A DNA stretch of 64,000 bases from Patescibacteria group bacterium (lineage in GTDB: Bacteria; Patescibacteriota; Patescibacteriia; UBA9934). Below the pieces are notes generated by a model that searched no databases, had not been told where the DNA came from, and was given only the letters and a program-made list of their open reading frames with translations. The translations under genes were made by a program, and so were the position numbers. The DNA lies in NCBI GenBank assembly GCA_018062825.1, contig JAGORL010000003.1:1058-65057 (forward strand), written 5' to 3'. Position 1 is the first letter of the stretch; each line of letters begins with the position of its first letter. Positions 9,001-53,603 of the stretch are shown here, one piece after another.

Positions 9001-12000
9001 TTCCCTCTTGCAAGTCGTAAGCGTTGGCCGTGTTGTCGGTGAGGGATGAAGCGAGGATGTCGGCCAAGAAAGCGACGGTGCCAGAAGCGTTCTGGAAGGT
9101 GATGGTGCGATCTGCGGTAGGATCCGTGATTGCGAAGGTGGTTTCTGAGGTGTCGGCAGTTGCACCCTCAAATACGAAAGGTGAGGCACCTTGAATGCCG
9201 GCGTTTAACGTGAAGGTGTCAGTTGCGGAGTCGTTACCGAGCGTGGTGTTGCCATCCGTTGTTAGTGCACCGAGGCCAGTGACGTCGCCGGTAGCGGAGA
9301 TGTCCCAATCTGAAGAGTTGATAGCAACTGTATCTCCGTTGTCACCGAGGGTGACAGTGCCGTTCGCGACAAGAGCGCCATTAGTCGTGGTGGTACCTGT
9401 AACAGTTACCGTGCTGCCAGCGGTTACTGCACCGTTAAGTGATACTGCACCCGTACCGGTTGCAAATGTCGTTGCGCCAGACTGAGTGAAGTTGCCATCG
9501 AGTGCGATCGAACCAAGACCAGAGGCGTCACCAGTTGCGGAGATGTCCCAATCCGAGGAATTGATGGCAACCGTGTCGCCACCGTCACCCAAAGTAACGG
9601 TGCCATTAGCAGTAAGAGCACCGTTCGTGGTCGTGGTACCAGTGACCGTCAAAGCACCAGCAAACGAAGTTGCACCGGTACCGAGGAAGGCGAAACTTGG
9701 GTTCGTGGTGGCGTTACCAAAGGAGATGTTCTCAGAAGCATTCGTCGTGTTGATGTTCAAGTAGTTATTGCTTCCCTCTTGAAGATCGTAGGCGTTAGCT
9801 GTGTTGTCGGTGAGGGATGAAGCAAGGATGTCTGCCAAGAAAGCGACGGTGCCGCTGGCGTTCTGGAAGGTGATGGTGCGGTCAGCTGTCGGATCCGTGA
9901 TGGCGAAGGTGGTCTCTGACGTGTCGGCCGTAGCACCCTCAAATACAAAAGGTGAAGCACCTTGAATACCGGCGTTTAACGTGAAGGTGTCAGTTGCAGA
10001 ATCGTTACCAAGGGTGGTGTTGCCGTCGGTTGTGACTGAACCGAGACCCGTTGCATCACCGGTAGCCGAAATGTCCCAATCGCTCGAGTTAACTGCGACC
10101 GTGTCACCGTTGTCGCCAAGTGTCACAGCACCATTAGTGACAAGAGCGCCGTTTGTGGTCGTCGTACCAGTGACTGTTACCGTGCTGCCAGCGGTTACCG
10201 CACCGTTAAGTGATACTGCGCCAGTACCAGTCGAGAATGTCGTAGCACCAGACTGGGTGAAGTTGCCATCGAGGGCGATGGAACCAAGACCGGAAGCGTC
10301 GCCGGTTGCTGAAATGTCCCAATCGCTGGAGTTGATAGCAACTGTGTCACCACCGTCACCAAGCGTGACCTGACCGTTAGCAGCAAGAGCACCATTTGTT
10401 GTTGTGGTGCCGGTGACTGTTAGCGCACCTGCCATCGACGTCAAACCGGAACCTAAGAATGCAAACGTTGGGTTTGTCGTGGCGTTACCAAAAGAGATGT
10501 TCTCGGAAGCATCGGTTGTGTTGATGTTCAAGTAGTTATTACTTCCCTCTTGCAAGTCGTAAGCGTTGGCCGTGTTGTCGGTGAGTGATGAAGCGAGGAT
10601 GTCTGCCAAGAATGCCACCGTACCAGAAGCGTTCTGGAAGGTGATGGTGCGATCTGCAGTTGGATCTGTGATTGCGAAGGTGGTTTCTGAGGTGTCGGCA
10701 GTTGCACCCTCAAATACGAAAGGTGAGGCACCTTGAATGCCGGCGTTGAGGGTGAAGGTGTCGGTTGCGGAGTCGTTACCGAGCGTGGTGTTGCCGTCCG
10801 TGGTGACTGCGCCAAGACCTGTGACGTCGCCGGTTGCGGAGATGTCCCAGTCGGAAGAGTTGATAGCAACCGTATCTCCATTGTCACCAAGTGTCACAGC
10901 GCCATTAGCGACAAGAGCACCGTTCGTGGTCGTCGTACCAGTGACCGTTACTGTGCTGCCAGCGGTTACGGCACCGTTAAGCGATACTGCACCAGTACCG
11001 GTAGCGAATGTGGTGGCACCTGACTGAGTGAAGTTGCCATCAAGGGCGATAGAGCCGAGACCAGAGGCGTCACCTGTTGCTGAAATATCCCAGTCTGAAG
11101 AATTGATAGCGACCGTATCGCCGCCGTCACCGAGAGTGACCTGACCGTTTGCCGCAAGAGCACCGTTCGTGGTTGTGGTGCCGGTGACGGTTAAGGTAGT
11201 AAGCGCACTTAATGCACCACTTACTGCGAGGGTTCCTGAGATTGTTTGATTGCCGGTTAATGTGAGTTCTGCTGCAGTGACATCTAAGTTACCGGATGCG
11301 TCAGCGGCGAGCGTGACATCTGTACCGCCGGAAGAGTAGAGGGTAACAAGACCATTTGCTGCCGCATCTGTACCAACGTACAGAGCAGCTGCTGACTCGT
11401 CGAAGTAGAGTGAAGCGCCAGCAATCGTGGTGTCGCCGATGACGAAATCGTCAGTTGTTGAGGTGAGGTAGGTGAAAGCACCGGCGTCTGTCCACTTGGA
11501 AGAACCAGCGGCAAGGCCAGTGATAACGGTATCTAAGTCATCTAAGACATCCTGAACATTGCCACTGCTGGAGTTGTCGAACTCGTCGAAGGTGCCAACA
11601 AGTGAAGCACCAGAGTCCGCGTTACTTGTTCCAACGTCTGAGAGGTCGATTGCGCCAATGGTAAGGGATGTAACGGTAGCGTCACCACCAGAGGTAATTC
11701 CCCAGTCGGTCGAGTCGATAACAACAGCATTGGAACCGCTACCAATCGTTACCGTTCCGTTAGAGGTGCCGGTATTGATGTTAGTTGCGAAGTTGCTGCT
11801 AGCGTTCAAGTTGATGGCAGCACCAGAAAGCGCTGCACCAGCAGTGCCGGTCAACAAACCATCCATGGTGATCGTTCCAATACCAGAAGCGTTACCGGTT
11901 GCGGAGATGTCCCAGTCTGAAGAGTTGATAGCAACCGTATCGCCACCATCACCAAGCGTGACCTGACCGTTTGCGGCAAGAGCACCGTTCGTAGTCGTGG

Positions 12001-15000
12001 TACCCGTGACCGTCAAAGCACCAGCGAATGAGGTTGCGCCGGTACCAAGGAAGGCGAAACTTGGGTTCGTGGTTGAGTTACCAAAGGAGATGTTCTCACT
12101 CGCATTGGTCGTATTAATGTTCAAGTAGTTATTACTTCCCTCTTGAAGATCGTAGGCGTCAGCTGTGTTGTCGGTGAGGGATGAGGCGAGGATGTCAGCA
12201 AGGAAGGCAACGGTGCCGCTGGCGTTCTGGAAGGTGATGGTGCGGTCTGCGGTTGGGTCTGTAATGGCAAAGGTCGTTTCTGAGGTGTCGGCGGTTGCAC
12301 CTTCAAACGTGAATGGTGAAGCACCCTGAACAGTGGAGTTCAAGGTAAAGGTATCCGTAGCTGCGTCACCGATCGTAGCGTTGCCATCGGTTGTTACTGC
12401 GCCGAGGCCAGTGACGTCGCCGGTAGCGGAGATGTCCCAATCTGAGGAGTTGATAGCCACCGTGTCACCGTTGTCGCCGAGCGTTACCTGACCGTTCGCG
12501 ACAAGAGTACCGTTTGTGGTCGTCGTACCGGTCACTGTTACTGTGCTGCCAGCAGTTACGGCACCGTTCAAGGAGACTGCGCCAGTACCAGTAGCAAAAG
12601 TGGTAGCACCTGACTGAGTGAAGTTACCGTCAAGCGCGATCGAGCCGAGACCAGAAGCGTCGCCAGTTGCGGAGATGTCCCAATCCGAGGAATTGATGGC
12701 AACCGTGTCGCCACCGTCACCCAAAGTAACGGTGCCATTAGCAGTAAGAGCACCGTTCGTGGTCGTGGTACCAGTGACCGTCAAAGCACCAGCGAACGAG
12801 GTTGCGCCGGTACCGAGGAATGCGAAGGTTGGATTGGTCGTGGCGTTACCAAAGGAGATGTTCTCGGAAGCATCAGTTGTGTTGATGTTCAAGTAGTTGT
12901 TGCTTCCCTCTTGAAGATCGTAGGCATCTGCTGTGTTGTCAGTGAGAGATGAGGCGAGGATGTCGGCCAAGAAAGCGACCGTACCAGAAGCGTTCTGGAA
13001 GGTGATCGTGCGGTCAGCTGTTGGATCTGTGATTGCGAAGGTGGTCTCTGAGGTGTCGGCCGTGGCACCCTCAAATACGAAAGGTGAGGCACCTTGAATG
13101 CCGGCATTGAGCGCGAAGGTATCAGTTGCAGAATCGTTACCAAGGGTGGTGTTACCGTCGGTCGTGACTGAACCGAGGCCAGTCACATCACCTGTTGCTG
13201 AGATGTCCCAATCTGAAGAGTTGATAGCTACCGTGCCAGAACCGCCACCAATAGAGACCGCTCCGTTAGAGGTGCCGGTATTGATGTTTGTCGCAAAGTT
13301 GCTGCTTGCATTCAAGTTGATAGCAGCACCAGAGAGTGTTGCGCCAGCCGTGCCGGTCAAAAGGCCGTCCATCGTAACTGCTCCAAGGCCGGTTGCGTCA
13401 CCCGTGGTCGAAATATCCCAATCTGAGGAGTTGATTGCAACCGTTTCTCCGTTGTCACCAAGCGCTACCTGACCATTTGCCGTTAGCGTACCCGCCAAAG
13501 TCAATCCACCACCGGAAGTGAAATCGGTTCCAGCGTCGCCAATGTTAACAATGAGGTTACTCAAGGCATCGATTGTGCCAGTGTCGCTAATTGTTAAACG
13601 AGTTACGCTATCGGTTTCAAAAGATAGTGCAAATGCATCATTAGTTCCAAGTACCGCCTCTGCTCCAAACGTATTTCCGTCCTGGATGAAAGCGGTTGCG
13701 CCCGTTACGCAGGTTGCACATGAGATGTCGCCTGCTGCGGAAAGGGAGATTGGTCCAGAAGCTGAAACTGCAAAGGTTCCGGAGGCGTTAGGAATGTTGA
13801 TTGTGCGATCAGCTGTCGGATCAACAACGGAAAGCGTTGTTTCATTCGTATCTGCCGTAGCGCCCTCAAAAGTGAACGGTGAAGCACCCTGAACGGTGGC
13901 GTTCAAGGTGAAAGTATCTGTAGCTGCGTCACCAATTGTAGCGTTGCCGTCGGTCGTGATAGCGCCGATACCTGTGACGTCGCCTGTTGCTGAGATGTCC
14001 CAATCTGAGGAGTTGATAGCAACCGTATCTCCATTGTCACCCAGTGTCACAGCGCCATTAGCGACAAGAGCGCCGTTTGTGGTCGTCGTACCGGTCACCG
14101 TTACTGTGCTGCCAGCTGTTACCGCGCCGTTAAGCGATACTGCACCGGTACCGGTAGCGAATGTGGTGGCTCCGGACTGAGTGAAGTTGCCATCAAGGGC
14201 GATAGAACCGAGACCGGAAGCATCACCGGTTGCGGAGATGTCCCAATCTGAAGAGTTGATCGCGACTGTATCGCCACCGTCACCAAGCGTGACCTGGCCA
14301 TTTGCGGCAAGAGAACCGTTTGTGGTCGTGGTACCAGTGACTGTTAGCGCACCCGCCATTGAGGTCAAACCGGAACCTAAGAACGCAAACGTTGGGTTTG
14401 TGGTGGCATTACCAAAGGAGATGTTCTCAGACGCATTCGTCGTGTTGATGTTCAAGTAGTTGTTTGTTCCCTCTTGGAGATCGTAGGCATCTGTCGTGTT
14501 GTCGGTGAGTGATGAGGCGAGGATGTCGGCCAAGAAAGCGACCGTACCAGAAGCGTTCTGGAAGGTGATCGTGCGGTCTGCGGTAGGATCCGTGATCGCG
14601 AAGGTGGTCTCTGAAGTGTCGGCCGTAGCGCCCTCAAACGTGAATGGCGAAGCACCCTGAACAGTGGAGTTCAAGGTGAAAGTATCCGTAGCTGCGTCAC
14701 CGATCGTAGCGTTGCCGTCCGTTGTTACTGCACCAAGACCTGTGACGTCGCCGGTAGCGGAGATGTCCCAATCTGAGGAGTTGATAGCCACGGTATCACC
14801 GTTGTCACCAAGTGTTACCTGACCGTTCGCGACAAGAGCGCCATTTGTGGTCGTCGTACCGGTCACCGTTACTGTGCTACCAGCTGTTACCGCACCGTTC
14901 AAGGAAACTGCACCGGTACCGGTAGCAAACGTGGTGGCACCTGACTGAGTAAAGTTACCATCGAGTGCGATTGAACCGAGACCGGAAGCGTCGCCAGTTG

Positions 15001-21000: not shown

Positions 21001-22318
21001 CGCCATCGCCGAGAGTGACGGCGCCGTTTGCTACGAAGGCAGAGCCGTTTGCGACCGTGGTTGCGCCGTTAAGCGACACTGCGCCTGTACCGGTTGAAAA
21101 GGAAGTAGCACCGGACTGCGTAAAATTACCATTCATTGAGATGGCACCAAGACCAGTGGCGTCACCGGTTGCGGAAATGTCCCAGTCACTTGAATTGATT
21201 GCGACTGTGTCGCCATTGTCGCCGAGAGTTACCTGGCCATTGGCAGCAAAAACTCCGTTTGCGGTGGTTGTACCAGTGATATTCAATGCAGCAAGAGCAT
21301 TCAATGCACCGCTCACCGCAAGCGATCCAGAAATGGTTTGATTACCAGATAATGTGAGTTCAGCTGCGCTTACATCAAGATTTCCCGAGGCGTCCGCACC
21401 GAGAGTGACGTCATTGCCACCTGAGGAGTACAGCGTCAAAAGACCGTCGGCAGAACTATCTGTACCAAGATAGAGCGTTGAGGCGGATTCATCAAAGTAC
21501 AAGGAGGCTCCAGCGATTGTGGTGTCACCAAGGACAAGATCATCGGTCGCAGAAGTGAGGTATGTAAACGTGCCATCATCGGTCCATTTTGAACCGCCAG
21601 CACCGATCGCTGAATCAAGATCGTCTAGGATGTCTTGCAGGTTTGTGCTGCTAGAATTGGTAAATTCATCAAATACTCCAATGAGTGCTGCACCTGAGGT
21701 AACAGAACTTACACCAACTGCATCAAGCAAAATGCCATCGATCTCCACGGATCCAACATCTACCCCGCCAGACATGACTAGATTGCCACCGGTTAGGACT
21801 GGGATATCGGATCCGGTAGGTGTTTGTGACGGCGTGAAGCCGCCAAGGGTGTTGGCGTTGATTGCGTAACCGGAGGATGTGATGCGCTGACGCGGGGAAA
21901 GGGTTTCAAAAGTGACGCCAACACAAGAGCCTGCAACTTGAGCAGCGATTTCGGTATTGAGGTAAATCTCATCCGTAGATTCGAAATCGAAATCGAGTAC
22001 ATCTCCCCCAGCTCCAGTATCACCGATGCCGATATTGAAGACGCCGTACACGACCTCAGCGGTCATGGTGCTTGGAGAACCAGCTGGCCAGACTTTTACA
22101 TCGCCACCACCCGGAGCTGCGTCATCGTAGAAAGAGAAACGGAAACAGTAATCTGTACCCGATCCGCCAAGCAAATTATTTGAGGCATCGAGTAGGCGGC
22201 CTTGGTGTTCAATAATAGTCGGAGCACCTGTTGCGGCAACAGCAAACGGAACACCTTGAAAAAAGGGTCCTCCGATAGTCGACATGAACACGAAAATTGC
22301 AATGATGCGCCGCAGCAT
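1..22318 (-). CDS. giant tandem-repeat cell-surface protein (partial; at least 7,439 aa in window; C-terminus lies beyond the window start)
   Basis: The ATG at 22318 is directly preceded by an in-frame TAA at 22319-22321. The translation begins [31 protein letters not shown], a signal peptide or TM anchor, followed by an N-terminal domain [11 protein letters not shown]...[18 protein letters not shown]. The reading frame (first codon base at position congruent to 1 mod 3) was checked and is the same at 22318, 20230, 15535, 8533 and 1285. No in-frame minus-strand stops occur in 1-400. Typical repeat translations are [47 protein letters not shown] and [42 protein letters not shown]. Every minus-strand ORF the track lists here is in frame 0, none in frame 1, which fits a single open frame running off the edge. 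The ORF is absent from the track, presumably because there is no stop in the window. Confidence 0.8.
1200..21600 (-). repeat. nested in-frame tandem coding repeats: a ~768-bp (~256-aa) unit in at least 18 copies, some expanded to 1.56-1.7 kb by an extra ~0.8-kb module; each unit contains 2-3 sub-repeats of ~80 aa built around ..[16 protein letters not shown]..
   Basis: The plus-strand marker ttccctcttg (antisense of ..QEGTNNY..) recurs at about 1876, 2921, 4582, 5353, 7061, 8231, 9001, 9772, 10543, 12137, 12905, 14468, 15235, 16827, 17593, 18333, 19926 and 20664, plus a variant at about 2391. The intervals are about 770 bp or about 1,590 bp. The motif gatgtcccaatc recurs roughly every 240-270 bp. 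Copies are imperfect, about 85-95% identical by eye. Confidence 0.85.
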
Positions 22319-40896: not shown

Positions 40897-42129
40897 ATGC
40901 AAACCTTTGCCCTCCTTGGCGCACACCCTGAGCTTTCACTTGCTGAAATTAAAGCCGTAACAAACGACAGCGCGAACGCACGCTTTGGCAATGTGGCGGT
41001 TTTTGACGATGTTTCTTGGGGTGATTTGCCAACCTTGCAAGAAAAGCTTGGTGGTACGCAAAAGCTTGGAGCGATCATTGCGACCTTTGAAACGGTTGAT
41101 GTACCGATGCTTGCCACACTCATGGCAGAAGACCTTGCTAACCGACAACTTGATAAGAAGATTCCGTTTGGCATCTCGGTTTATGGCGGCAACGAGGCGC
41201 ACAAACTTCGTGAAGCGACACGTAAACTTGGCTTTGAAGTTAAAGGTATCCTTAAAGAGCGTGGAATCTCTGCGCGCTTTGTTGTCTCAAAGGACCCGAC
41301 GCTTTCGAGTGTTGTCTTGAAGAAGAACGGACTCCTTTCTGGTGGCGCTGAATTTGTTCTGCTTCCACAAGGCACAGGTTACGTGCTCGGCGTTACTGAG
41401 GCGGCGCAAGATGTTGATTCTTGGAGCTTGCGTGACTTTGGTCGACCACGACGTAATGCCAAGCAAGGCATGTTCCCACCGAAACTTGCACGCATGCTTT
41501 TGAACCTAACTGGTAAGCGTATTGCTGGCGCGAGCGTTTTTGATCCGTTCTGTGGATCAGGAACCGTACTTATGGAAGCGGCAGTGCTTGGAGCAACGCG
41601 ACTTGTTGGAGCTGACATTAATGACACCGCTGTAGAAGACACCAAGAAGAACTTGGCGTGGCTTGCCGCAACCGTACCGATGAGCACACCGGAACTTCAT
41701 GTGAGCGATGCACGCGACGTAGCTTCGCTTGTAAAAACACCGGTCGACATTATCGTTACCGAAACGTATCTTGGTCGACCTCGTAAGGGCGTTGAGACGC
41801 GCGCGGAACTCCAGGAGACGATTAGCTACGTAGAGCGACTGTATCGTGACTGCTTCACCAAGCTTCGTGATGTCCTTACCGAAGACGGCGTCATCGTCCT
41901 CACTTCACCGAAGCATTTTCTTGCAAACGGCGAATCATTCGAGCTTCCAACGGTGCAGATCATGGAGGAGCTCGGCTATTATCATGCGCCTGTTGTTATC
42001 GAGGAACTTTTGTACAAGCATAAAGAGCAGATGGTTGGACGTCAGATTTTCCGCTTCTTGAAGCATGCGCCAAAGCAAGGCGGCCCGGCATCTATCAGCA
42101 TTTGGAAGACGATGATGGGGAAGGTGTAG
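40897..42129 (+). CDS. THUMP-domain RNA (guanine-N2) methyltransferase-like protein (Trm11/RlmL-like)
   Basis: The SAM-binding motif I DPFCGSGT is present. The motif FPPKLARMLLNLT resembles the LARxxxNLA motif of Trm11/m2G methyltransferases. The N-terminal half is THUMP-like. Confidence 0.65.
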   Translation: MQTFALLGAHPELSLAEIKAVTNDSANARFGNVAVFDDVSWGDLPTLQEKLGGTQKLGAIIATFETVDVPMLATLMAEDLANRQLDKKIPFGISVYGGNEAHKLREATRKLGFEVKGILKERGISARFVVSKDPTLSSVVLKKNGLLSGGAEFVLLPQGTGYVLGVTEAAQDVDSWSLRDFGRPRRNAKQGMFPPKLARMLLNLTGKRIAGASVFDPFCGSGTVLMEAAVLGATRLVGADINDTAVEDTKKNLAWLAATVPMSTPELHVSDARDVASLVKTPVDIIVTETYLGRPRKGVETRAELQETISYVERLYRDCFTKLRDVLTEDGVIVLTSPKHFLANGESFELPTVQIMEELGYYHAPVVIEELLYKHKEQMVGRQIFRFLKHAPKQGGPASISIWKTMMGKV

Positions 42130-42149
42130 GGAGTGAGATTAAAGTTGAA

Positions 42150-42183
42150 AGAGCATACGGCGATGAACCTATGCTCTTTTTTG
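42150..42183 (+). terminator. rho-independent terminator after the methyltransferase gene
   Basis: A stem of agagcata and tatgctct with a 12-nt loop is followed by TTTTTT. Confidence 0.55.
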
Positions 42184-42188
42184 TTGGC

Positions 42189-42217
42189 TTTACAGAAAGT
42201 CTCGTATTTGCTAGAGT
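42189..42217 (+). promoter_or_regulatory. sigma70-type promoter TTTACA-N17-(TGC)TAGAGT
   Basis: The sequence reads tttaca gaaagtctcgtatttgc tagagt. An AGGAGG ribosome-binding site lies about 6 nt before the ATG at 42245. Confidence 0.5.
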
Positions 42218-42244
42218 TTCTGGTTCCACCGCAGGAGGATATGT

Positions 42245-42616
42245 ATGGAACACGAGAAGGTCACGCCGCTCATTCCCCCGTTTACGATCATCGATCACCT
42301 GGTCGACCCCGCCGAGACCGTGCGGCTCATCGCTGCCGCTCAGGAACCGATCGCAAGCCTCCCCGGCTTTGCGATCATGTCGAGTTTCTTCGAGCACGAG
42401 GGTATTCGTACCGTGCTCGATCTCGTCACGTCGGACGACGCCCGTCTTTGCCACGTCGTCATCATGAACAAGTCCGCCGACTCGTTCGTCGATGCCGTAC
42501 TTGCGGAACGCGGACTGCGACGCGTCAACCCCGATACGACCATGCGCGCTCTGATCTACGACCTCGCTCGACGCAGTCGCCCGCCGCGTCTGAGCACCTG
42601 GCAGCAGTCGCCGTAG
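42245..42616 (+). CDS. hypothetical cytoplasmic protein (123 aa)
   Basis: It has its own promoter and an AGGAGG ribosome-binding site. The sequence looks protein-like (..IIDHLVDPAETVRLIAAAQEPIASLPGFAIMSSFFEHEGIRTVLDLV..). The competing antisense 218-aa ORF and the Arg-rich 194-aa ORF are judged spurious, as artefacts of high GC. Confidence 0.5.
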   Translation: MEHEKVTPLIPPFTIIDHLVDPAETVRLIAAAQEPIASLPGFAIMSSFFEHEGIRTVLDLVTSDDARLCHVVIMNKSADSFVDAVLAERGLRRVNPDTTMRALIYDLARRSRPPRLSTWQQSP

Positions 42617-42682
42617 TACCACGCCCGCCAATCTTGCCGCTTCTTGGTCGCCCGACCTTGATGAGCGCGCTCGATTGGCGGG

Positions 42683-42711
42683 TTGATTTTTTTGCAAATT
42701 TCTGCTATAAT
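42683..42711 (+). promoter_or_regulatory. sigma70-type promoter TTGATT-N17-(TGC)TATAAT
   Basis: The sequence reads ttgatt tttttgcaaatttctgc tataat, a perfect -10 hexamer with a 17-nt spacer. It lies about 40 nt upstream of the ATG at 42751, and a GGAG ribosome-binding site is present. Confidence 0.7.
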
Positions 42712-42750
42712 GATTAGTTAGGTTGCCCTTTCCCACCGGAGATTTCCTCA

Positions 42751-43461
42751 ATGTCTACCTCTCTCGCCCGCGTCAGCGCCAAGCTGAGCCTCGCCCTTCT
42801 TGTTCTGACCTTCATGCTGTGGTGCCTTGTGCGCATTATGCCGGCGCAGGCTGAGATGCGCGCGCCGGAGATCGTGCGTACTGCGACGGACACGGCGCCG
42901 CCGATCAGCGACCCCGTGCTTGCGCGCATCAACGACAAGCTCGCGACCGAGATCGAAAACGGTCTGCCCGCACAGGTGCGGGAGTGCCTGGCGCGCTATA
43001 AGAGTGTTTTTCGAGCGATCGAGAAGCGCAGTGGCGTGCCGATGGAACTGCTTGTTGGCGTCGCTACGATCGAGAGCGGCGGTTGTTCCCTGCCGAAGAA
43101 CGGCCCCGGGAACATCACGCACATCACGCTTGTTGACGATCGGCACCGTTTGAAGGCTGCCGAATTCGCGAAGACGACGCCCCAAGAGCTCAATGAGCTC
43201 GAATCGAGCTTCGATGCAGTAGCTATCACGGCGGCTGTATTGCGTGATTACAAGCGCCGCACCGACACTGGTCTTACCGGCATCATGGCGTACGAACGTG
43301 GCCCAGGGAACCTCCCTGACGACACTACGACACCGAACCGCTATGCCCGACGGGTACTAACGGCGGCAGCGTTTGCTCGCCGTATCCTGAACAAGGAACC
43401 GATCGTAGACAGCGATGGCATTGTCATCCACGTTACCGCCGACGAACTTCCGGAGTTCTAG
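42751..43461 (+). CDS. secreted SLT-domain (lytic transglycosylase-like) protein, 236 aa
   Basis: It has a Sec signal peptide with an AQA-EM cleavage site. An SLT-like catalytic motif is present (..LLVGVATIESGGCS..). The size is typical of small transglycosylase/lysozyme-like domains. Confidence 0.6.
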   Translation: MSTSLARVSAKLSLALLVLTFMLWCLVRIMPAQAEMRAPEIVRTATDTAPPISDPVLARINDKLATEIENGLPAQVRECLARYKSVFRAIEKRSGVPMELLVGVATIESGGCSLPKNGPGNITHITLVDDRHRLKAAEFAKTTPQELNELESSFDAVAITAAVLRDYKRRTDTGLTGIMAYERGPGNLPDDTTTPNRYARRVLTAAAFARRILNKEPIVDSDGIVIHVTADELPEF

Positions 43462-43508
43462 GCTCGTGCCCCGCCTTGCAGTAATGCTTGGTGGGGCTTT
43501 GTTATTTA

Positions 43509-43537
43509 TTGACTTTTTGGCTAATTTTTGCTATATT
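43509..43537 (+). promoter_or_regulatory. sigma70-type promoter TTGACT-N17-(TGC)TATATT
   Basis: The sequence reads ttgact ttttggctaatttttgc tatatt. It is about 83% identical over 29 nt to the promoter at 42683-42711. A GGAGG ribosome-binding site lies 4-5 nt before the ATG at 43563. Confidence 0.7.
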
Positions 43538-43562
43538 TCTTCTTGTCACTTTTGGAGGAACC

Positions 43563-43994
43563 ATGCGAAAGATCGCAACGCTGTTTGGTGCCTGGTTGGC
43601 CACGGCCGCGATTCTCATTTGTATCGATTGGCTGTACGTCAGCCCTTGGATGCAGGCGGGAAATGCGGCGACGAGCGCTGATGTGGACCTTATGCTTTCC
43701 GCCAGGTTGTGGTGCATGGAGGCTGACTATTGCAAGGTCCGGGTCCGTGACTCCACGGTTCAGGTACTCTCGATCTACAACAAGCGGGAGCATGTCCTCG
43801 AGGCCGAGCTCCCCCGAGGCTCACAGGTCTTGAGTATTCTCGCGTCACTCTGCGACCACAAGGACTGTGAGATCGAGGGTGACGACCAAAGTGCCATCAT
43901 TCGCCAGGATGGCCGGGATGCGGCCATGCTCTTGCACAACGACGATGGTCGAATCTCGACCCACATCCTCGCTCCGGCCATGGCCCGCGAGTAA
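43563..43994 (+). CDS. hypothetical small membrane-anchored Cys-containing protein (about 144 aa)
   Basis: The product begins MRKIATLFGAWLATAAILICIDWLYV, an N-terminal TM helix. The remainder probably faces outward and contains 4 Cys. The track extends the ORF back to a TTG at 43488, but the promoter and ribosome-binding site support 43563. Confidence 0.55.
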   Translation: MRKIATLFGAWLATAAILICIDWLYVSPWMQAGNAATSADVDLMLSARLWCMEADYCKVRVRDSTVQVLSIYNKREHVLEAELPRGSQVLSILASLCDHKDCEIEGDDQSAIIRQDGRDAAMLLHNDDGRISTHILAPAMARE

Positions 43995-44000
43995 CCGAAA

Positions 44001-44040
44001 GCCCCGGCTCCACACTTGGAGACCGGGGCGTCATTTTTTT
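44001..44040 (+). terminator. rho-independent terminator closing the island; it overlaps the ychF stop
   Basis: A stem of gccccggctcc and ggagaccggggc with a 6-nt loop is followed by TTTTTTT. Confidence 0.6.
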
Positions 44041-45154
44041 ATTGGTTGATGCGGAAGTGACAGACGTCACCATCTTGCACAATGTATTCCTTGCCTTCAA
44101 TGCGGAGCTTGCCGTTATCACGCGCACCGCTCTCGCCGTCAAAAGCCACGAAATCATTATAGGAGACCACTTCTGCGCGAATAAAGTTCTTTTCAAAATC
44201 AGTGTGAATGACCGCCGCTGCTTGCGGCGCCTTCATGCCACGCTCGATCGTCCAGGCACGCGATTCTTTTTCACCGGTGGTGAAATAGGTCACGAGATTG
44301 AGAAGTTCGTAACACTTTTTGATCACCTTATCGAGACCGGATTCGTTCATGCCGAGTGCTGAAAGCATCTCTGCCGCTTCCTCTACTGACAAACTCGCGA
44401 GTTCAGCCTCAATCTTTACGGAAATTGGTACTGCAAGACGATTTGGGCCAAGCGGTGAAACCCATGCCGGATTTTTTGCGGCCTCTTCATCAACGTTTAC
44501 CACGTAAAGAATTGGCTTGTTGGTGAGGAGCTGAATGGTCTTGACCGCTTCACGCTCTTCATTGGTAAGTTCAACGGAACGAGCGAGGTGACCTTGCTGC
44601 AGTGCAGTGTTCCACTTTTCAAGTGCTGAAGCTTGGGCGGCCATTTCTGGCGTTTTGCCAGCTTTCATTTTGCCGGTAATCGCATCGAGCATCTTTTCCA
44701 CGGTAGCAGCATCGGCCATTGCTAACTCAAGCTCGATAACCTCAACGTCACGGGCTGGATCAATCGAGCCGTCGACGTGGACGATGTCGTTGTTTTCAAA
44801 GGAGCGAACGACGTGCGCGATCATGTCGACCTCACGAATGTTGGCCAGGAATTTATTACCAAGACCCTCGCCTTTATGAGCACCCTTTACAAGACCGGCG
44901 ATATCAACGAATTCAATCGCGGTTGGAATGATCTTGGTGGAGTTCGACATCTTTGAGAGGGTTGCAAGGCGCGCATCTGGCACCTCAACAACACCAACGT
45001 TTGGCTCAATAGTACAAAAAGGGAAGTTTGCGCAATCAACCTGTTTTTTGGTGAGCGCAGTAAAGAGAGTGGACTTTCCGACGTTTGGAAGCCCAACGAT
45101 GCCAACATTCAACATAGATTTGCGCAGTGTAGTCGAAAGATCCTTACTGTGCAA
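44039..45154 (-). CDS. ychF: ribosome-binding ATPase YchF (Obg-like GTPase family)
   Basis: A G1 motif GLPNVGKST, a TGS domain and overall YchF conservation are present. The probable true start is the internal Met ([15 protein letters not shown]) at about 45115. Confidence 0.9.
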
Positions 45155-47453: not shown

Positions 47454-50400
47454 TTATGGCGTTACTTCAAGAACTTCATCAATCAGCTCTTCCCCACCCT
47501 CGATATTTTCTTCTTCGACTACAGGCGCAACATCCTCTACCACCGGCTCATCTTCCGTTTCAATCTCATCAACAACGACCTCTTCTGAATCGCTTGATTC
47601 ATCAACTGGAGTCTCGTCTACGACCTCTTCATCTTCAACGACTACCTCCTCATCTGACTGATCTTCAGATTCATTCAGCACCTCTTCATCTTCTGGAAGA
47701 TTGTCTTCAGGGACTTCAGGTGGCTCTGGCTCTGTTACTACCGGCGCTACAGTTTGCGCGTAGTCTTTATGGGTACCAACAACCAACCAATCTACGAGAA
47801 TGCCGTCTGATCCGGAGGAGTCACGGATAACAAAGCTGGCTTGATCACGATTTGTGACCGAGATCTGACCGGTGGCGCCATTTGGCGTGACGAAAACGCG
47901 GTACGGAACCTCGTTACTTATGATGTCGTTGAACTTTGGATCAATGCTCTCGAGATTAACAAGTGCCGTACCGTTTTGCAGCGTTGCTGTGCCTGAGAGC
48001 TGAATGGTCATTTCGCGACTTGTGGCGGCGTAGGTTTCAACGTCCTCGTTCTGATATGAACGAACGAGTTGCACAAGACGACCTTCGGTTTCAATATCGC
48101 CGTTACCGGAAATACTCCAAGCGCCCCCAACGCCCTCTATTGATCCAACTGAGAAGATGCCGCCGCCATTCATGTTGAGCGTGCCGGTGATATCAAGGGT
48201 TGCGACCGTTGATGACGCTAGGCCGCTGATTGCTGTATCGGCTGCTGGGGCAACATTTGTGCTAGCGCCGTCATAGTAGGAAGCACGAACAAACACGATG
48301 ATTGAGCCATCACCCGAAGCATGATCCTCCATGGCATAACCAACAATTGGTCCTGGCTGGGTGGCCTTCATGGCGTAGCCTGGCTTTGAACTCGTAGTAA
48401 GCGGATCACCAACCTTAATCGCACCATTTTCTGAAGAAACGAAGGTTGGTACGCGACCGGCAAGCGCTACTGGATACTCGCCATCGCGCCACTCACCTGC
48501 CAAGAAACCAGGGCGTGTTGAAACAATGCCAGCAATGCGGTCATCGTACTTCTTACCTGTTGAACGGGTCATTTGCTCGCGACCTGTTCCGAAAACGACA
48601 ACTTCACCTGGCACAAGTGCGTCAGGCGATGGGAACATTTCCGCAAAATCATACGAACCAGTGCTCCAACCGGCGGCATTGGTACGCATGTAACCAAGAC
48701 CGGAGCTGTCGTAATAAATGTAAGCAGAATTCTGCATGGCACCGCTATCCGATGGGTAGAAACGACCAGCGAGCGATAGATCACCGTTTTGATTGATAGA
48801 TGCTACCTCTGTGCCGGCGGTATTTGTTACAGCTAATCGGTACGCTGAGACGCTATCAACCATGGTTTCAAGACCCATAGCTACTGATTGGGCTGATGAA
48901 CCGTTCCAAGCAGAGCCACGGAAGCTGAGAAGCTCCGAGCCGTAGTTTGCTGAACTATTTGCGGTGGCGAGTGAGGCGAGCGCGAAGGTTTCTCGCATAA
49001 CGATAGCTGAGCCATCGCTTGTAATTGTGCCTTCGGCTGACCAGGTTGGCTGCACCATGACCTTAATAACGCCGGAACCTGCTGCAAGTGGCTCAAGCGC
49101 ATAGCCGAGCACGCGTGACGGACCGCCAGCTTTGCCGACAGCGCCAGCAACTGATGAAGAAGTAGTAACAAGATCGCCAACTGCAATCGCGCCATCTGCT
49201 GCAGAAGCTGAAACATCAATCTGACCGATCAAACCGACAAGACGATAGTTTGCCGGGATGCCGTAATCAAAAGACTCTTGGTAGTTGCCAATGAAACCTG
49301 GATTTGTTGAGATCGCACCAATGATCGAAGTCTCTCCTGGAGCGCACTCTTTTACGCCGTTGAGCGTTGATTCATCACGACAAACAACATCGTTGCCGCC
49401 AAGGCTACCATCTGAAGAGATCATCCACTCCGCTAAGTCGGCTCCACCACCAGTAAAGGAACCGTCGGCAAACGCATCGCCATCTGCCTCAAAACGGAAC
49501 TCGATATCCGGGGTGCCGTCCGCGTCTGAGCGGAAGACAACGAGTTCATCATTACTTGCCGTTTCATTAGTATCAACAAGCAATGCAAAGTTGGTGGTAG
49601 TTGAACTATCGCTCACCGTGTTTTGCTCAATACGCATGGCTGACGAGTTTGTTTGCGTGCTGTCGTTTCTGACATGGAAAACGTGGTTATCAAATGAGGT
49701 GTTGTCCGAGAAGATATAAGCGAGAGGCGATGTAGATGTACCGCCGTTTGTATAAACAGTGAGTCCGTAGTCATCGTTACCAGTGTTGCCGACATGCAGC
49801 GCACCGCCCACCTCATTTGTTACCGTCGTGCTGGTTGATTCATCTTGCTGTATGTTTACACCGCTTCCCGTACCATCATTTTCTACCTGAATTACCGCTC
49901 CAGTTGCGCCAGCATTGCCCTGCGCAACAGAAATTACGTGCGCGCTGTCTGTAAGCGTGCCTGACGTATTAGCGTTATTACTTATAAGCTGCAGCAAGTC
50001 TCCGGTTACCGAAAGCGCACCACCGCTATTGTTTGTGAGTGCTCTCGTTACAGAAATGCCGTTACCAGATACCGTGGCGGGTGCAATATATGTCGCAGTG
50101 TGCGATAAACGAGATAAGTCACCGCTAGTTAGCCCGGTAGAGTTAGAGCTTACTTGTAATCCAACTCCGGATAGCAACCCGTTTACCGTCACGTCCAGGG
50201 CTGCGGCCGTTGTAATCGTGCCGCCATCGATGTCTATAAAGTCAACGCCACCGCTGTTTGAAGAAAAATCAATCGTGGCTCCGTCGTTAAAAACAGCGAA
50301 CGGTGTACCACCGGTTTGAATAATATGATCTCCGGTACCGGTCATCGCAATATAAAAATTTCCCGTGTCATCAAGTTCAACGTTGAACTGATTGGTGCCG

Positions 50401-53400
50401 AGAGCAATATCCGTTGATTCGTCAAGATTGAGCTGGAACTCTAGCGAGTCAAAATCTAAACAATTTGGACAGTCTAGGGCAGTAAACGTTGCGGCGCCCG
50501 TTGCATCAATACTCCAATCATCTCCACCCGTGAGATCTAGCAGAAATGATGCGTTGCTGTGACCTAAGGTCAGAGTATCGGTTCCAGCTGGGGCAATGAT
50601 CATGTCTGTTCCCGCCTCGATCGTGAGTGCATTTAATGAGTTTGAAGAAATGTTCAAGTCGCCGTTTGACGCCAGTGCGTCAGCGTACACTGTTGGGATA
50701 TCAAGATATGCTGAACTTGTAATAACTCCAGCGTTGTCGACATCGAAGTAGGTAAAATCAATCGCCGCTGCGGTTCCGATGATGTCGTTTGCGCCAAGGT
50801 CGATACCTGTTCCGATTGAAGTATCACTTAAGCTAATACCTGTTCCGTAGCCACCGGTACCAACAAGATCTAAACCGATGCCAACTGATTCGTTGGAATC
50901 GTTATTAGCAAGACGAATAAAAGCATCAAACGTACCAGTCGCGCCGCCGTCATCATTGTTTGCCAAGAACATGAGGTAATTTGCAGCAGTGCTTGCCGCG
51001 GCAGTGTTCGTAACTCTGAGATCAAATGGATTGATCGAGGTGTCAGTTGTATGTGCAACGTCGATATCGGTAAATTCGCCATCAACAGTGTTTTGGTTGA
51101 TATCTAGCGTGTCGCTAAAAATTGCTGCTCCAGATGTTGCATCAATAGCAAAAACCTGTGATCCGAGATCTTGGATCTCGAAGTTCCCTACCGAAGTTAA
51201 GTTCCAAACTACGTCATTTGCGGCCGAAATTGTTAGGCTGCCATCAGTCGTCATGCTGTCTGCGAACTCTGTAAAATCGAGACTATCAGCAGCAATAGTT
51301 CCGCCGTCTTCCCATGACAAGATTCCCAAACCATCCGTTGATAAGAATTGACCGCTTGATCCGTCGGTTGCCGGTAACGTCCAGACCGTGTCGGACGCAA
51401 TGGCATCAGGAGCCTTGAAACCGACATAGTTACTACCAGCGAGCTCGACAAACGCAGCGAATCCTGTCTCACCTGGAAGGACGCCGACCGCCATCAGGGA
51501 TATCTCAGGTGATCTTAGGCTTTGCAGGTCAACGGTATGAAATTCGGCATCACCGTCTGCGCGAATCTGCCAATCGTCACCACCATTAATCGCAACCGCT
51601 GTTCCGACGTTGTCGTTGCCGATGTTAATTACATCTCCGGAGGTAACGTTTGTCGCGATGTTGATCACGTTTGCAATATCACTTGTAACACCACCAATAT
51701 CAATATTTGTTGTACTACCTCCGCCATCGAGGAAATTAAGCGTGGTGCCGTTTGAAGTAATGTCTCCACCATTTAGTGCTACATCCAAAAAGTTACCGAG
51801 CTCAGCAATGACTGTGACAAATTCAGCTTCGCCAAATTGATCAATATACCAATCATCACCACCGGTTATATCGACGATCGTATCGGTATTACTGTTACCG
51901 AAAAAGAGAATGTCGCCGGTAGTGTCATCAGTTGCCATGAAAATAGTATTTGCCTGATCTACTGTTACGCCGCCAAAGTTTATGTTCGGCGCACTGAGTG
52001 CGTCGTTCATGAAGTCAAGATCATTCGTTGAGATAAAATCACCACCGGCGATTGAGAGATCGCCATCGGTTGTAATATTTCCACTAGTATCAATGATTAT
52101 TTGGTTAGCGGTGAGATCTAAATTTCCCGACGCATCAGATCCGATGTTGATGCTTGAAGATCCACCGCGAAGAAGAATCGTTCCTGGTTCAGAATCACTA
52201 CCGACGTAAAGTGTTTCAGTAGACGTATCGAAGTATAACGGCGCTGTAGTTGTCAGGGTGCTACCAACGACTAAATCGTCCGAGGTGCCAGTTAGGTACG
52301 TAAAAGCGCCGGCATCAGTCCATTTTGAGGAGCCGGCAGCTAGCGCATCTATTGCCGTATCAAAATCCGTGAGCACACCTTGCACATCCACCTCAGAGGA
52401 TTGCGTAAACAAGGCAGAGTCTACACCAACAAGCGTAGCGCCGGCGGTTCCTGAGCTTTGACTTAGCCCGACACTGTTGATAACGAGATCACCGGTATCG
52501 ATATTCAAATCACTCGTTAAATTGACTGACGGGGCGTTTATATCGAGGCCTCCAGAAGCTGCGCTCAATGTAACTGACCCGCTAAAGCCGTCATATAGCA
52601 CAATCGATCCACTCTGAACGGTATCGATGCCTAGTAATAACTGCGCTTCGGCTTCATCAAAATAGAAGGTCGCACTACTAATCTCATCACCACCTATCAA
52701 AAGCCCGTCGTCTAAATCGGTGAGATATGTAAACGCTCCATCGTCAGTCCATTTTGATGAACTGACGGCTAAGGCATCGATTGCCGTATCGAAATCGGCT
52801 AGAACCCCTTGAACTTCTGTACCGATTGACTGAGTAAAGGCTGACGTATCAACGCCAACAAGGGTGGCGCCGGCGGTTCCGGAACTTGCATTTAGAGCAA
52901 CGCCGCCAATGATCACATCGCCTTCACCGTCGATTCGGAAGAGATCGGTGCCGCCAACTGCAACGCCAAAAATGGTATCGCTCGCGTTTACATCAAGGGC
53001 AGCTGGGTTGATATACATTGAACCTTGAGAAACGCCTGAACCCGTTGGATTACCGGTAACGACAAGAGCACCGTTGGCATTAAAAGCTGGAAGTGCGGAT
53101 TGAGTAGAGCCAACAAGCGTCGTGTCCAATCCGTCGACCAGGCTGCTATTTATAGCGTAAGCAGCCGACATGACACGCTTTCTTGGAGTTAGCGTTTCGC
53201 CGTTAATTGTGACTTGGAGAAAGACGTTGGCGTTATCGCCGAAGACTGATTCAGGAATAGCGGCGTATGGATCACCAAGCGTGGTATTTCCGAGTGGCTC
53301 GGAAAAGAGACCGTCCGTAAGCGTTACCGTGCGAGCAGTGGCACTTACACAAGTACTCGAAGTGTTTGACCACAAACACGTTCCTCCGGAAACAGCGGTG

Positions 53401-53603
53401 TAAAACTCAAAGATAACGCTTGCGGAAGCTGCAGAGACAGGAACACCATTGGCGTTTAATAAGCGACCTTGATACTGAACGATGTTTGCAGGAGTTGCAG
53501 CAACGACTGACTGTACATTTAACGCTACCGACTGAAATGCCAAAATCGCTAGTATGCAAATACTGGCGAAACGCTTAAGCAAGTTATGCGGTCGGTGATT
53601 CAT
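47454..53603 (-). CDS. giant exported repeat protein (2,049 aa), paralogue of the >7,400-aa protein
   Basis: The signal peptide MNHRPHNLLKRFASICILAILAFQSVALNV is followed by an N-domain (..QYQGRLLNANG..PRKRVMSAAYAINSSLVDGL) that is homologous to the N-domain of the gene at 22318. A shared module SSKWTDDGAFTYLT..LYFD occurs twice. A ~130-aa C-proximal module is duplicated (..GFIGNYQESFDYGIPANYRLVGL.. and ..GFLAGEWRDGEYPVALAGRV..). The protein ends in a very acidic ~90-aa tail. Confidence 0.85.
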   Translation of the reverse strand: MNHRPHNLLKRFASICILAILAFQSVALNVQSVVAATPANIVQYQGRLLNANGVPVSAASASVIFEFYTAVSGGTCLWSNTSSTCVSATARTVTLTDGLFSEPLGNTTLGDPYAAIPESVFGDNANVFLQVTINGETLTPRKRVMSAAYAINSSLVDGLDTTLVGSTQSALPAFNANGALVVTGNPTGSGVSQGSMYINPAALDVNASDTIFGVAVGGTDLFRIDGEGDVIIGGVALNASSGTAGATLVGVDTSAFTQSIGTEVQGVLADFDTAIDALAVSSSKWTDDGAFTYLTDLDDGLLIGGDEISSATFYFDEAEAQLLLGIDTVQSGSIVLYDGFSGSVTLSAASGGLDINAPSVNLTSDLNIDTGDLVINSVGLSQSSGTAGATLVGVDSALFTQSSEVDVQGVLTDFDTAIDALAAGSSKWTDAGAFTYLTGTSDDLVVGSTLTTTAPLYFDTSTETLYVGSDSEPGTILLRGGSSSINIGSDASGNLDLTANQIIIDTSGNITTDGDLSIAGGDFISTNDLDFMNDALSAPNINFGGVTVDQANTIFMATDDTTGDILFFGNSNTDTIVDITGGDDWYIDQFGEAEFVTVIAELGNFLDVALNGGDITSNGTTLNFLDGGGSTTNIDIGGVTSDIANVINIATNVTSGDVINIGNDNVGTAVAINGGDDWQIRADGDAEFHTVDLQSLRSPEISLMAVGVLPGETGFAAFVELAGSNYVGFKAPDAIASDTVWTLPATDGSSGQFLSTDGLGILSWEDGGTIAADSLDFTEFADSMTTDGSLTISAANDVVWNLTSVGNFEIQDLGSQVFAIDATSGAAIFSDTLDINQNTVDGEFTDIDVAHTTDTSINPFDLRVTNTAAASTAANYLMFLANNDDGGATGTFDAFIRLANNDSNESVGIGLDLVGTGGYGTGISLSDTSIGTGIDLGANDIIGTAAAIDFTYFDVDNAGVITSSAYLDIPTVYADALASNGDLNISSNSLNALTIEAGTDMIIAPAGTDTLTLGHSNASFLLDLTGGDDWSIDATGAATFTALDCPNCLDFDSLEFQLNLDESTDIALGTNQFNVELDDTGNFYIAMTGTGDHIIQTGGTPFAVFNDGATIDFSSNSGGVDFIDIDGGTITTAAALDVTVNGLLSGVGLQVSSNSTGLTSGDLSRLSHTATYIAPATVSGNGISVTRALTNNSGGALSVTGDLLQLISNNANTSGTLTDSAHVISVAQGNAGATGAVIQVENDGTGSGVNIQQDESTSTTVTNEVGGALHVGNTGNDDYGLTVYTNGGTSTSPLAYIFSDNTSFDNHVFHVRNDSTQTNSSAMRIEQNTVSDSSTTTNFALLVDTNETASNDELVVFRSDADGTPDIEFRFEADGDAFADGSFTGGGADLAEWMISSDGSLGGNDVVCRDESTLNGVKECAPGETSIIGAISTNPGFIGNYQESFDYGIPANYRLVGLIGQIDVSASAADGAIAVGDLVTTSSSVAGAVGKAGGPSRVLGYALEPLAAGSGVIKVMVQPTWSAEGTITSDGSAIVMRETFALASLATANSSANYGSELLSFRGSAWNGSSAQSVAMGLETMVDSVSAYRLAVTNTAGTEVASINQNGDLSLAGRFYPSDSGAMQNSAYIYYDSSGLGYMRTNAAGWSTGSYDFAEMFPSPDALVPGEVVVFGTGREQMTRSTGKKYDDRIAGIVSTRPGFLAGEWRDGEYPVALAGRVPTFVSSENGAIKVGDPLTTSSKPGYAMKATQPGPIVGYAMEDHASGDGSIIVFVRASYYDGASTNVAPAADTAISGLASSTVATLDITGTLNMNGGGIFSVGSIEGVGGAWSISGNGDIETEGRLVQLVRSYQNEDVETYAATSREMTIQLSGTATLQNGTALVNLESIDPKFNDIISNEVPYRVFVTPNGATGQISVTNRDQASFVIRDSSGSDGILVDWLVVGTHKDYAQTVAPVVTEPEPPEVPEDNLPEDEEVLNESEDQSDEEVVVEDEEVVDETPVDESSDSEEVVVDEIETEDEPVVEDVAPVVEEENIEGGEELIDEVLEVTP

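Follow-up and report, generated by a model that had tools for sequence, protein, structure and literature searches.

A block of three small genes was analyzed in a 64,000-nucleotide stretch of contig JAGORL010000003.1 from a Patescibacteria group bacterium (the whole stretch is referred to as the window). The block lies at positions 42130-44040, between a methyltransferase gene and ychF, and its GC content stands out from the rest of the window. Gene 2 of the block encodes a predicted secreted, divergent enzyme of the GH23 superfamily (SLT / goose-lysozyme-like), and genes 1 and 3 encode orphan proteins. The explanation that we regard as likely, taken as a whole, is that gene 2 is a long-standing resident of this slot, inherited vertically since before the lineages that carry it split; that the GC excess is a long-maintained bias at the third codon position and not the scar of a recent foreign origin; and that genes 1 and 3 are presumably expressed, fast-evolving orphans of the narrow lineage to which the window belongs.

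Composition and descent of the block

The GC content of every 1,911-nt segment across the 64 kb was compared, and 400-nt segments were compared as well. The interval 42130-44040 has a GC content of 0.578, which is the highest of all 1,911-nt segments. The rest of the 64 kb has a mean of 0.507 and a maximum of 0.552, and the GC content of the window as a whole is about 51%. The deviation corresponds to z=2.9 against the 64 kb and to z=4.6 against the part between 22 and 64 kb. With 400-nt segments, the values are 0.59-0.62 inside the block and 0.47-0.52 in the flanks. The first-pass annotation, made by reading the sequence, had described a GC-rich island at this place. The windowed GC and codon statistics agree with that description, the block being the highest 1.9 kb against about 0.49-0.51.

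The excess is confined to the third codon position. The GC content at this position (GC3) is 0.774 in gene 1, 0.717 in gene 2, and 0.736 in gene 3, compared with 0.496 in the methyltransferase gene and 0.524 in ychF, and the GC1 and GC2 of the block genes are nearly equal to those of the flanking genes. The three genes have the highest GC3 among about 45 open reading frames (ORFs) of the window, with rpsF next at 0.665. The spacers between the block genes are AT-rich to average, with a GC content of 0.43-0.51. Long antisense ORFs run across the block (for example, 42095-42751); these were read as by-products of the high GC3 and not as genes.

The same junction was compared among loci of family members and methyltransferase homologues from genome and metagenome collections, which are designated by L-numbers. 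In two close relatives, L004 and L005, the methyltransferase is 92% and 85% identical to that of the window, and the ychF product of L004 is 96% identical. L004 has all three genes at this junction, in unchanged order and with the same rise in GC, and L005 has genes 1 and 2 up to the point where its contig ends. In distant relatives (L009, L010, L011, L024, L025, L027/L028, and L029/L030), an SLT-like gene lies 3' of the methyltransferase gene and convergent with ychF. The same slot is occupied in 8 of the 10 lineages of related Patescibacteria, and the gene lies elsewhere only in L026 and L031. Among the distant slot carriers, the methyltransferase is 41-51% identical where comparable, and ychF is 74-79% identical.

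The bias accompanies the gene throughout these loci. The GC3 of the SLT-like gene is above that of its neighbours in all of the loci compared (12/12), at 0.58-0.96 versus 0.40-0.72. The individual values are 0.72 in the window, 0.74 in L004, 0.70 in L005, 0.96 in L009, 0.72 in L010, 0.70 in L011, 0.85 in L024, 0.75 in L025, 0.82 in L026, 0.77 in L027, 0.78 in L029, and 0.58 in L031. The relocated genes also keep the bias, with 0.82 versus 0.43-0.45 in L026 and 0.58 versus 0.43-0.50 in L031. Because the lineages differ at most synonymous sites, the bias must have been continuously maintained. The SLT-like gene of L009 (765-1484) has a GC3 of 0.963, and the adjacent methyltransferase gene and ychF have 0.55 and 0.51. 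A 323-aa antisense ORF spanning this gene was set aside as a by-product of the high GC3.

The divergence of the SLT-like protein was compared pairwise with that of the flanking proteins. Its identity correlates with that of both flanking proteins, at r=0.86 for ychF and r=0.81 for the methyltransferase, and the closest pairs, window/L004 and L009/L024, are the same for all three proteins. Between the window and L004, the synonymous divergence (dS) is 0.74-1.46 for the block genes and 0.57-2.7 for the flanks. Gene 2 evolves several times faster than its neighbours: its ratio of nonsynonymous to synonymous divergence (dN/dS) is 0.17 in this comparison, and that of the neighbours is 0.01-0.07. 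Att-like, direct, and inverted repeats at the borders of the block are limited to short ones at chance level. No integrase or mobility gene lies by the block, where the neighbours are housekeeping genes, and no tRNA gene lies at its borders, the only one of the window being 14.6 kb off.

The anomalous composition had been taken in the first-pass annotation as a sign of horizontal acquisition, which would mean a recent arrival from a GC-rich donor that is not yet ameliorated. Such an event could explain a GC3 of 0.72-0.77 that tops the window, a shift to GCG, CCG, ACG, CGG, and CTG, which the host genes rpsF, rpsR, efp, and ssb avoid, and the lack of relatives of genes 1 and 3 beyond one narrow lineage. 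The report that genomic islands are common in Patescibacteria (PMC12455944) was also counted in its favour. However, relatives whose synonymous sites are nearly saturated (dS 0.7-1.5) carry these genes in the same position and with the same GC3, so that the bias is maintained rather than decaying; a foreign gene on its way to the composition of the host would be expected to look different. The slot carriers extend to the 41-51% level of methyltransferase identity, and the SLT-like divergence tracks that of both flanking genes. No homologue beyond the small family was found in 1.84 billion cluster representatives, so that no donor is visible, and the borders show neither repeats nor an integrase or tRNA gene. 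We consider recent acquisition very improbable. The earlier suggestion is essentially overturned because gene 2, and among close relatives the whole trio, is found at the same junction.

In several respects the block resembles compositionally deviant genomic islands: composition and codon usage change sharply, the genes are lineage-restricted, and the slot, which lies between core genes, is variable. Unlike such islands, the block is GC-rich and not AT-rich, and it has no mobility genes, tRNA, or repeats. Its key gene is old and congruent with the flanks, and its bias has been held over deep divergence and is not decaying.

The slot has other contents in other relatives. Unrelated small secreted proteins are encoded there in L008, L016, and L019, a protein kinase in L021, and proteins without assignment in L006, L012, and L013. 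The slots of L007 and L017 hold nothing beyond an ASCH-domain gene. The slot of L018 holds a complete sigma-70 family factor with regions 2, 3, and 4 and a 178-aa protein (L018 3402-4238 and 4360-4896). Because gene 2 has been lost or replaced repeatedly in some lineages, it is an accessory and dispensable gene. The 178-aa protein of L018 has a 39% identical homologue of 186 aa in L010 (983-1543), whose gene comes next after the SLT-like one. The secreted proteins of L008 (9278-9817), L016 (6625-7329), and L019 (4762-5355) form a small Cys-containing family with 36-51% mutual identity. Their resemblance by eye to a 3D / double-psi-barrel wall-binding domain was dropped, as no Pfam match was found. 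In L008, masked bases (X) just 5' of ychF make an artificially long ORF at 10224-12500.

The gene 2 protein and its family

Gene 2 is located at 42751-43461 on the plus strand and encodes a protein of 236 aa. A word-indexed search of 5.8 billion proteins yielded four close relatives. The alignment of these relatives was used with HMMER against the 1.84 billion cluster representatives, and 16 clusters were recovered at E<=1e-3. The gene 2 protein is linked to the family members at E=1e-21 to 1e-7, and Pfam SLT (PF01464) is matched by 13 of the 19 members at E<=0.01, with a best E=3.4e-12. Judged by these searches, the family is real but rare.

The alignment of 19 family sequences shows no variation at C79, G111, and C112 and almost none at G103, E108, S109, and Y181. 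The motifs of the gene 2 protein are, in order, ATIESGGC, GNITHI, and AYERGPGN. E108-S109 aligns with the ES of goose lysozyme, and the third SLT motif (A-Y-N-x-G) is present as AYERGPGN. The second motif (G-L/I-M-Q) reads GNITHI in the window lineage, GNVMHI in one sub-branch, and G-I/L/F-M-Q in the other members.

The family profile was compared with the PDB, and goose-type lysozymes (E=7e-6) and Slt/Slt70 (2e-4) were matched. The AlphaFold2 (AF2) model of the gene 2 protein has a mean predicted local distance difference test score (pLDDT) of 88.8 and nine helices, with an N-terminal helix, a disordered linker at residues 35-50, and a helical domain from residue 55. The top Foldseek matches in PDB and BFVD are all GH23 / LT_GEWL proteins with probability 1.0; those in PDB are the Ralstonia GH23 chitinase, Slt, MltE, and g-type lysozymes. 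The SLT-domain call that had been made for gene 2 from the sequence alone is supported by both the model and the profile, which matches goose lysozyme and Slt70.

The N-terminus, read by eye, has the form of a Sec signal, with MSTSLARVSAK, a hydrophobic stretch, and a putative cleavage site between PAQA and EM; AQAEMR is kept in close relatives. The product is probably a Sec-exported enzyme of a GH23 branch that is stabilized by a C79-C112 disulfide. On the sequences sampled, the family is a small, previously unnamed branch of GH23 that is restricted to the Candidate Phyla Radiation (CPR). After cleavage of the signal peptide, the enzyme would cut the glycan strands of peptidoglycan outside the membrane, and Glu108 would serve as the catalytic acid. 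It may be either a lytic transglycosylase or a muramidase, the sequence being compatible with both.

Slt70 and MltE of E. coli and Slt of P. aeruginosa share with gene 2 the all-helical lysozyme-like fold, as indicated by both profile and model matches. The family 1 lytic transglycosylases also share the Glu-Ser at a helix end (ATIESGG), the C-terminal A-Y-x-x-G-P-G, and the N-terminal export signal. The identity to SLT enzymes is 13-20% in structural alignments, and the gene 2 protein falls below the Pfam cut-off. Unlike these enzymes, it has GNITHI in place of G-L-M-Q, the invariant C79 and C112, and a single domain without superhelical, lipoprotein, or outer-membrane context. The best PDB profile matches of the family are goose egg-white-type lysozymes (GEWL) from ostrich, black swan, and goose (E=7e-6 to 1.5e-4). 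These matches span the AYNxGxG / RYxxxV region and the E-S helix, and the proteins are of similar size (about 185 residues). GEWLs are animal hydrolases, and SLT enzymes yield 1,6-anhydro products. The cell setting of gene 2 also differs from that of the SLT enzymes because Patescibacteria are described as monoderm-like (PMC12102498). Specialized transglycosylases of the VirB1 type, which belong to type IV secretion systems, have been reported in Patescibacteria (PMC12102498). The gene 2 product is comparable in that it is small and secreted, has an SLT domain, is encoded by a CPR genome, and by analogy could open the wall locally. Unlike the VirB1-type enzymes, it is not accompanied by neighbouring genes for type IV secretion or a pilus, either in the window or in the relatives that were examined.

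The block was read in the first-pass annotation as a conceivable phage remnant, which would leave gene 2 as a residual endolysin-type gene of a phage or mobile element, with the other genes as accessories. Many tail and lysis proteins of phages do contain SLT or LT_GEWL domains, and the gene 2 model matches such viral proteins in structure. These viral matches are, however, no better than the cellular GH23 ones. No PHROG match and no relative in 2.9 million viral contigs were found, and genes 1 and 3 have no match in phage genomes or plasmids. The neighbours are all housekeeping genes, and the borders have no repeats. A phage or mobile-element origin of this kind is extremely improbable.

Several points weigh against vertical descent of an active, exported enzyme. 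The gene 2 protein itself matches Pfam SLT with 17.1 bits (E=0.004), which is below the gathering threshold of 21.3. The replacement of G-L/I-M-Q by GNITHI could mean that the activity is altered or lost. Foldseek gave weak E-values, none better than 6e-3, and TM-scores of about 0.5-0.6 on the target, and secretion was judged by inspection only. The congruence with the flanks rests on six loci and two informative close pairs, and an exchange of cassettes between close relatives by homologous recombination would mimic vertical inheritance. As to the target, an outward role in episymbiosis, in which the wall of a host or neighbour would be cut, is slightly preferred to a role in remodelling the wall of the cell itself.

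Genes 1 and 3 and the transcription units

Gene 1 (42245-42616, plus strand) encodes a 123-aa protein without a signal peptide or transmembrane segment by inspection, and the product is apparently cytoplasmic. Its GC3 of 0.774 versus a GC2 of 0.444 supports the reading frame. The orthologues in L004 and L005 are 39-41% identical. No match was found in Pfam, NCBIfam, PHROG, PADLOC, PDB, phage, or plasmid collections, and the search of 5.8 billion proteins together with the fetched loci gave matches only in the window's own lineage. A helix-hairpin-helix resemblance (RAD51D_N, E=0.059) is a weak lead only. The register seen by eye, like that of the C-terminal domain of the RNA polymerase alpha subunit, was reproduced by hhalign with E. 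coli RpoA, but at a probability of only 6%, and the profile had no match in the PDB, so that this likeness too is kept as a lead only.

The product of gene 3 (43563-43994, plus strand) has 143 aa; it begins with a hydrophobic anchor or signal, and its ectodomain is mostly beta. The first-pass annotation had given the three proteins as 123, 236, and 144 aa; the first two lengths hold, and the third is one residue too long. In GenBank, gene 3 is a 161-aa version with an upstream start. The conserved cysteines are C51, C57, C97, and C102, and homologues with 30-71% identity were found only in P0022, P0023, and L004. The AF2 model is weak (pLDDT 62) and has a transmembrane helix, a second helix, and seven strands. 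As modelled, the product is a membrane-anchored protein with a Cys-bearing ectodomain. No meaningful fold match was obtained with this weak model (best TM-scores <=0.3), and no family, phage, or plasmid match was found. A gene 3-like protein in L006/L014 was discarded, as E=0.15 is not significant.

The dN/dS is 0.58 for gene 1 and 0.48 for gene 3, compared with the low values of the neighbours. The two proteins are 39-41% and 30% identical between genomes whose methyltransferases are 92% and whose ychF proteins are 96% identical. Genes 1 and 3 are real genes nonetheless: both retain their reading frame and length, and both have a strong codon-position signal. A search for defence systems with PADLOC gave no match.

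A secreted peptidoglycan hydrolase followed by a small membrane-anchored protein had been likened in the first reading to an effector/immunity or lysin/anti-lysin pair, in which gene 3 would be a membrane-anchored inhibitor that guards the producer from the gene 2 enzyme. Genes 2 and 3 are indeed adjacent and on one strand. With its N-terminal anchor, gene 3 would expose its Cys-bearing, mostly beta ectodomain on that side of the membrane where the enzyme is also located. Both genes also evolve fast, which might fit co-evolution. However, beyond the window's narrow lineage gene 3 does not accompany the SLT-like gene anywhere; the gene that follows is unrelated in L010 and L011 and missing in L009 and L024. 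A terminator and a promoter separate genes 2 and 3 into separate transcription units. No match to PliG, PliC/MliC, Ivy, or another inhibitor fold was found with the weak gene 3 model, and no secretion or delivery system adjoins the block. The pairing is improbable, and gene 3 is not a conserved partner of gene 2.

Each gene of the block has its own promoter-like site and its own hairpin terminator. The sites are of the sigma-70 type, with a 17-nt spacer and a TGCTA-type extended -10, and lie 25-40 nt 5' of the start codons. A pattern scan of both strands of the 64 kb found 7 fitting sites, and P1-P3 of the block are the best three. P1 (42189-42217, plus strand) is TTTACA-N17-(TGC)TAGAGT, and its TTTACA and TATTTGCTA are kept in L004 and L005. 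P2 (42683-42711, plus strand) is TTGATT-N17-(TGC)TATAAT, with no base change in L004 and two substitutions in L005. P3 (43509-43537, plus strand) is TTGACT-N17-(TGC)TATATT. It is 100% identical between the window and L004, while the gene 3 protein downstream is only 30% identical. The presence of one promoter per gene and the 83% identity of P2 and P3 over 29 nt, both pointed out in the first reading, were reproduced (24/29 positions).

P2 and P3 are unchanged between the window and L004, while the four-fold coding sites are only 33-56% identical. By this comparison, the expression signals P2 and P3 are under unusually strong purifying selection beside fast-evolving coding sequence. In related genomes, the slot genes are preceded by the same promoter type. 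It had also been noted that the block promoters match the host's own -10 consensus. This is consistent with the promoter type seen in the relatives, though the window alone cannot show it.

The terminators were read from the sequence, and an automatic scan flagged only portions of two of them. The probable terminator of the methyltransferase gene (42150-42182, plus strand) was found by reading and is a hairpin of AGAGCATA and TATGCTCT with a 12-nt loop, followed by a T run. The scan missed it, possibly because the loop exceeds the 3-8 nt of the scan. L004 and L005 also have a hairpin and a T run here, but the bases of the stem differ. The probable gene 1 terminator (42624-42693, plus strand) is a long-loop hairpin of CCCGCCAATC and GATTGGCGGG followed by TTGATTTTTTT. 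Its T run overlaps the -35 of P2, the scan flagged 42669-42683 of it, and both arms are largely kept in L004 and L005. The probable gene 2 terminator (43468-43509, plus strand), also found by reading, has a hairpin of GCCCCGCC and GGTGGGGC and a T-rich tail; it is kept in L004 with changes within the stem and the loop. The gene 3 terminator (44001-44040, no strand assigned), situated where gene 3 and ychF converge, has a GC-rich hairpin of GCCCCGGCTCC and GGAGACCGGGGC followed by a T run; the scan flagged 44015-44027. This hairpin is possibly bidirectional. From these signals, the block is read as three independent transcription units, each with promoter, gene, and terminator, which would be expressed from their own promoters.

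A 16-nt leader block, CCCTTTCCCACCGGAG, lies at 42728-42743, after P2 and just 5' of gene 2. It is identical in the window, L004, and L005, and may be a shared translation-initiation or regulatory element. A similar C-rich stretch followed by GGAG precedes the slot genes of the distant relatives L010, L011, L016, L017, and L025.

The block is bracketed by the methyltransferase gene (40897-42129, plus strand) and ychF (44039-45115, minus strand). The convergent arrangement of these two flanking genes and the bracketing terminators, as first described, were confirmed. The mechanical ORF of ychF, 44039-45154, begins at a TTG and has 371 aa, while the public calls and all relatives use the ATG at 45115 (358 aa). 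In GenBank, all three block proteins are called 'hypothetical protein' (tags KBC55_03245-03255); the identical entries for the block and its neighbours are MBP9828147-MBP9828151, from a metagenome-assembled genome (contig of 197,601 bp). The rest of the window contains rpoB/rpoC-sized genes, efp, an EpmA-like gene, rpsR-ssb-rpsF, and several giant genes. A stop-free frame on the minus strand, 2-22318, starts near 22318 and leaves the window at its left end, with at least 7,439 aa and a GC3 of 0.52. Its protein is giant and internally repetitive and has a signal-like N-terminus. Another giant gene, at 47454-53603, encodes 2,049 aa.

Cause and meaning of the third-position bias

GC3-rich genes are also found near the slot. 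In the relatives, variable genes with a GC3 of 0.60-0.93 are inserted in two further places, one bounded by rpsF and the methyltransferase gene, the other by ychF and the gene for a TPR-containing membrane protein. All of them are oriented against the core genes around them. These inserts are located at L007 3936-5738, L008 5926-7917 and 11334-12479, L012 3955-5247, L016 8853-10175, L017 7794-8984, L019 1699-3399, L027 5462-6706, and L029 7192-10457. The window has no insert at these places; ychF and the next gene abut at 45144-45154. Since GC3-rich inserts are found elsewhere in the relatives, the GC3 phenomenon extends beyond the block.

Codon preferences were compared between the block and the host genes. 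The host genes rpsF, rpsR, efp, and ssb favour GCT, CGT, CCA, ACC, and GGT. The block favours GCG, CCG, ACG, CGG, and CTG and has no AAA. Translational selection of the kind acting on the host's highly expressed genes was rejected as the cause of the GC3, as the codon correlation between the block and these genes is 0.35 and GCG, CCG, ACG, and CGG go in the opposite direction. The GC3 was also followed along the flanks. There is no gradient in ychF, and the 3' end of the methyltransferase gene has only 0.58 versus 0.53; a slight rise in its 3' fifth is seen notably in the window (0.62) and in L004 (0.54). A regional GC gradient, as conversion tracts would predict, was rejected, being absent in ychF and slight at the methyltransferase 3' end.

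Sustained selection at synonymous sites is one possible cause, which we put forward tentatively. It could act on mRNA stability or structure, or on translation through codons that are rare in the host. The bias follows the SLT-like family into the other contexts of L026 and L031, it stops sharply at the gene borders, and the spacers are not GC-rich. However, the codon choice differs from that of highly expressed host genes (correlation 0.35), and a GC3 that ranges from 0.58 to 0.96 between lineages would mean a loose optimum. Gene transfer agents (GTAs) are a vertically inherited gene set whose raised GC has been attributed to selection (bioRxiv 10.1101/2020.05.06.081315). The GTA clusters of Alphaproteobacteria resemble the block in their vertical inheritance and in a GC content off that of the host, and selection, not foreign origin, was proposed as the cause. 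The genes, function, and organisms are unrelated, and the likeness is limited to the compositional phenomenon.

A second cause, which we hold to be rather doubtful, is GC-biased conversion at a recombination hot spot, or a repeated replacement of the cassette from GC-richer Patescibacteria. The content of the slot is variable (SLT-like genes, secreted proteins, sigma-70, kinase, or nothing), the neighbouring variable slots also hold GC3-rich genes, and the 3' fifth of the methyltransferase gene is slightly raised in GC3. Biased conversion also predicts that the GC3-richest genes evolve fastest, and the dN/dS is 0.17-0.58 in the block versus 0.01-0.07 in the neighbours. The gene transfer detected in Patescibacteria is mostly between Patescibacteria (PMC12455944), which was counted in support of conversion or replacement. 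Against both stand the missing gradient in ychF, the weak one in the methyltransferase gene, and the congruence of the divergence with that of the flanks. The dS of the block is not below that of the flanks, which argues against any recent import of alleles between the lineages of the window and L004. To our knowledge, a GC3 shift from about 0.5 to 0.96 far exceeds any biased conversion reported in bacteria.

There may also be, in this clade of Patescibacteria, a dedicated process that keeps individually promoted accessory genes, including the SLT-like family, GC3-rich for very long periods, up to 0.96 while the other genes stay at about 0.5. This is unlikely on present judgement. The process may be a codon-based control of expression, in which poorly read codons restrict translation to a specific state, such as host contact, or an exceptional local GC-biased conversion. 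If such a process operates, the gene 2 enzyme and the two orphans would be factors of host interaction.

The enzyme belongs to a well-known superfamily, and the persistence of the composition is the sole aspect that a specialist might find surprising. The clean compositional island with its own promoters is here not a recent import, and callers based on composition would mislabel it. A vertically inherited family that is GC-rich at synonymous sites within genomes of about 50% GC bears on the debate over mutation, selection, and biased conversion as causes of bacterial GC content. The GH23 superfamily gains a small branch that is, as sampled, confined to one group of ultra-small bacteria that probably depend on hosts. 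Being secreted and predicted to cut walls, the enzyme is an obvious candidate for the means by which these cells breach or remodel a wall.

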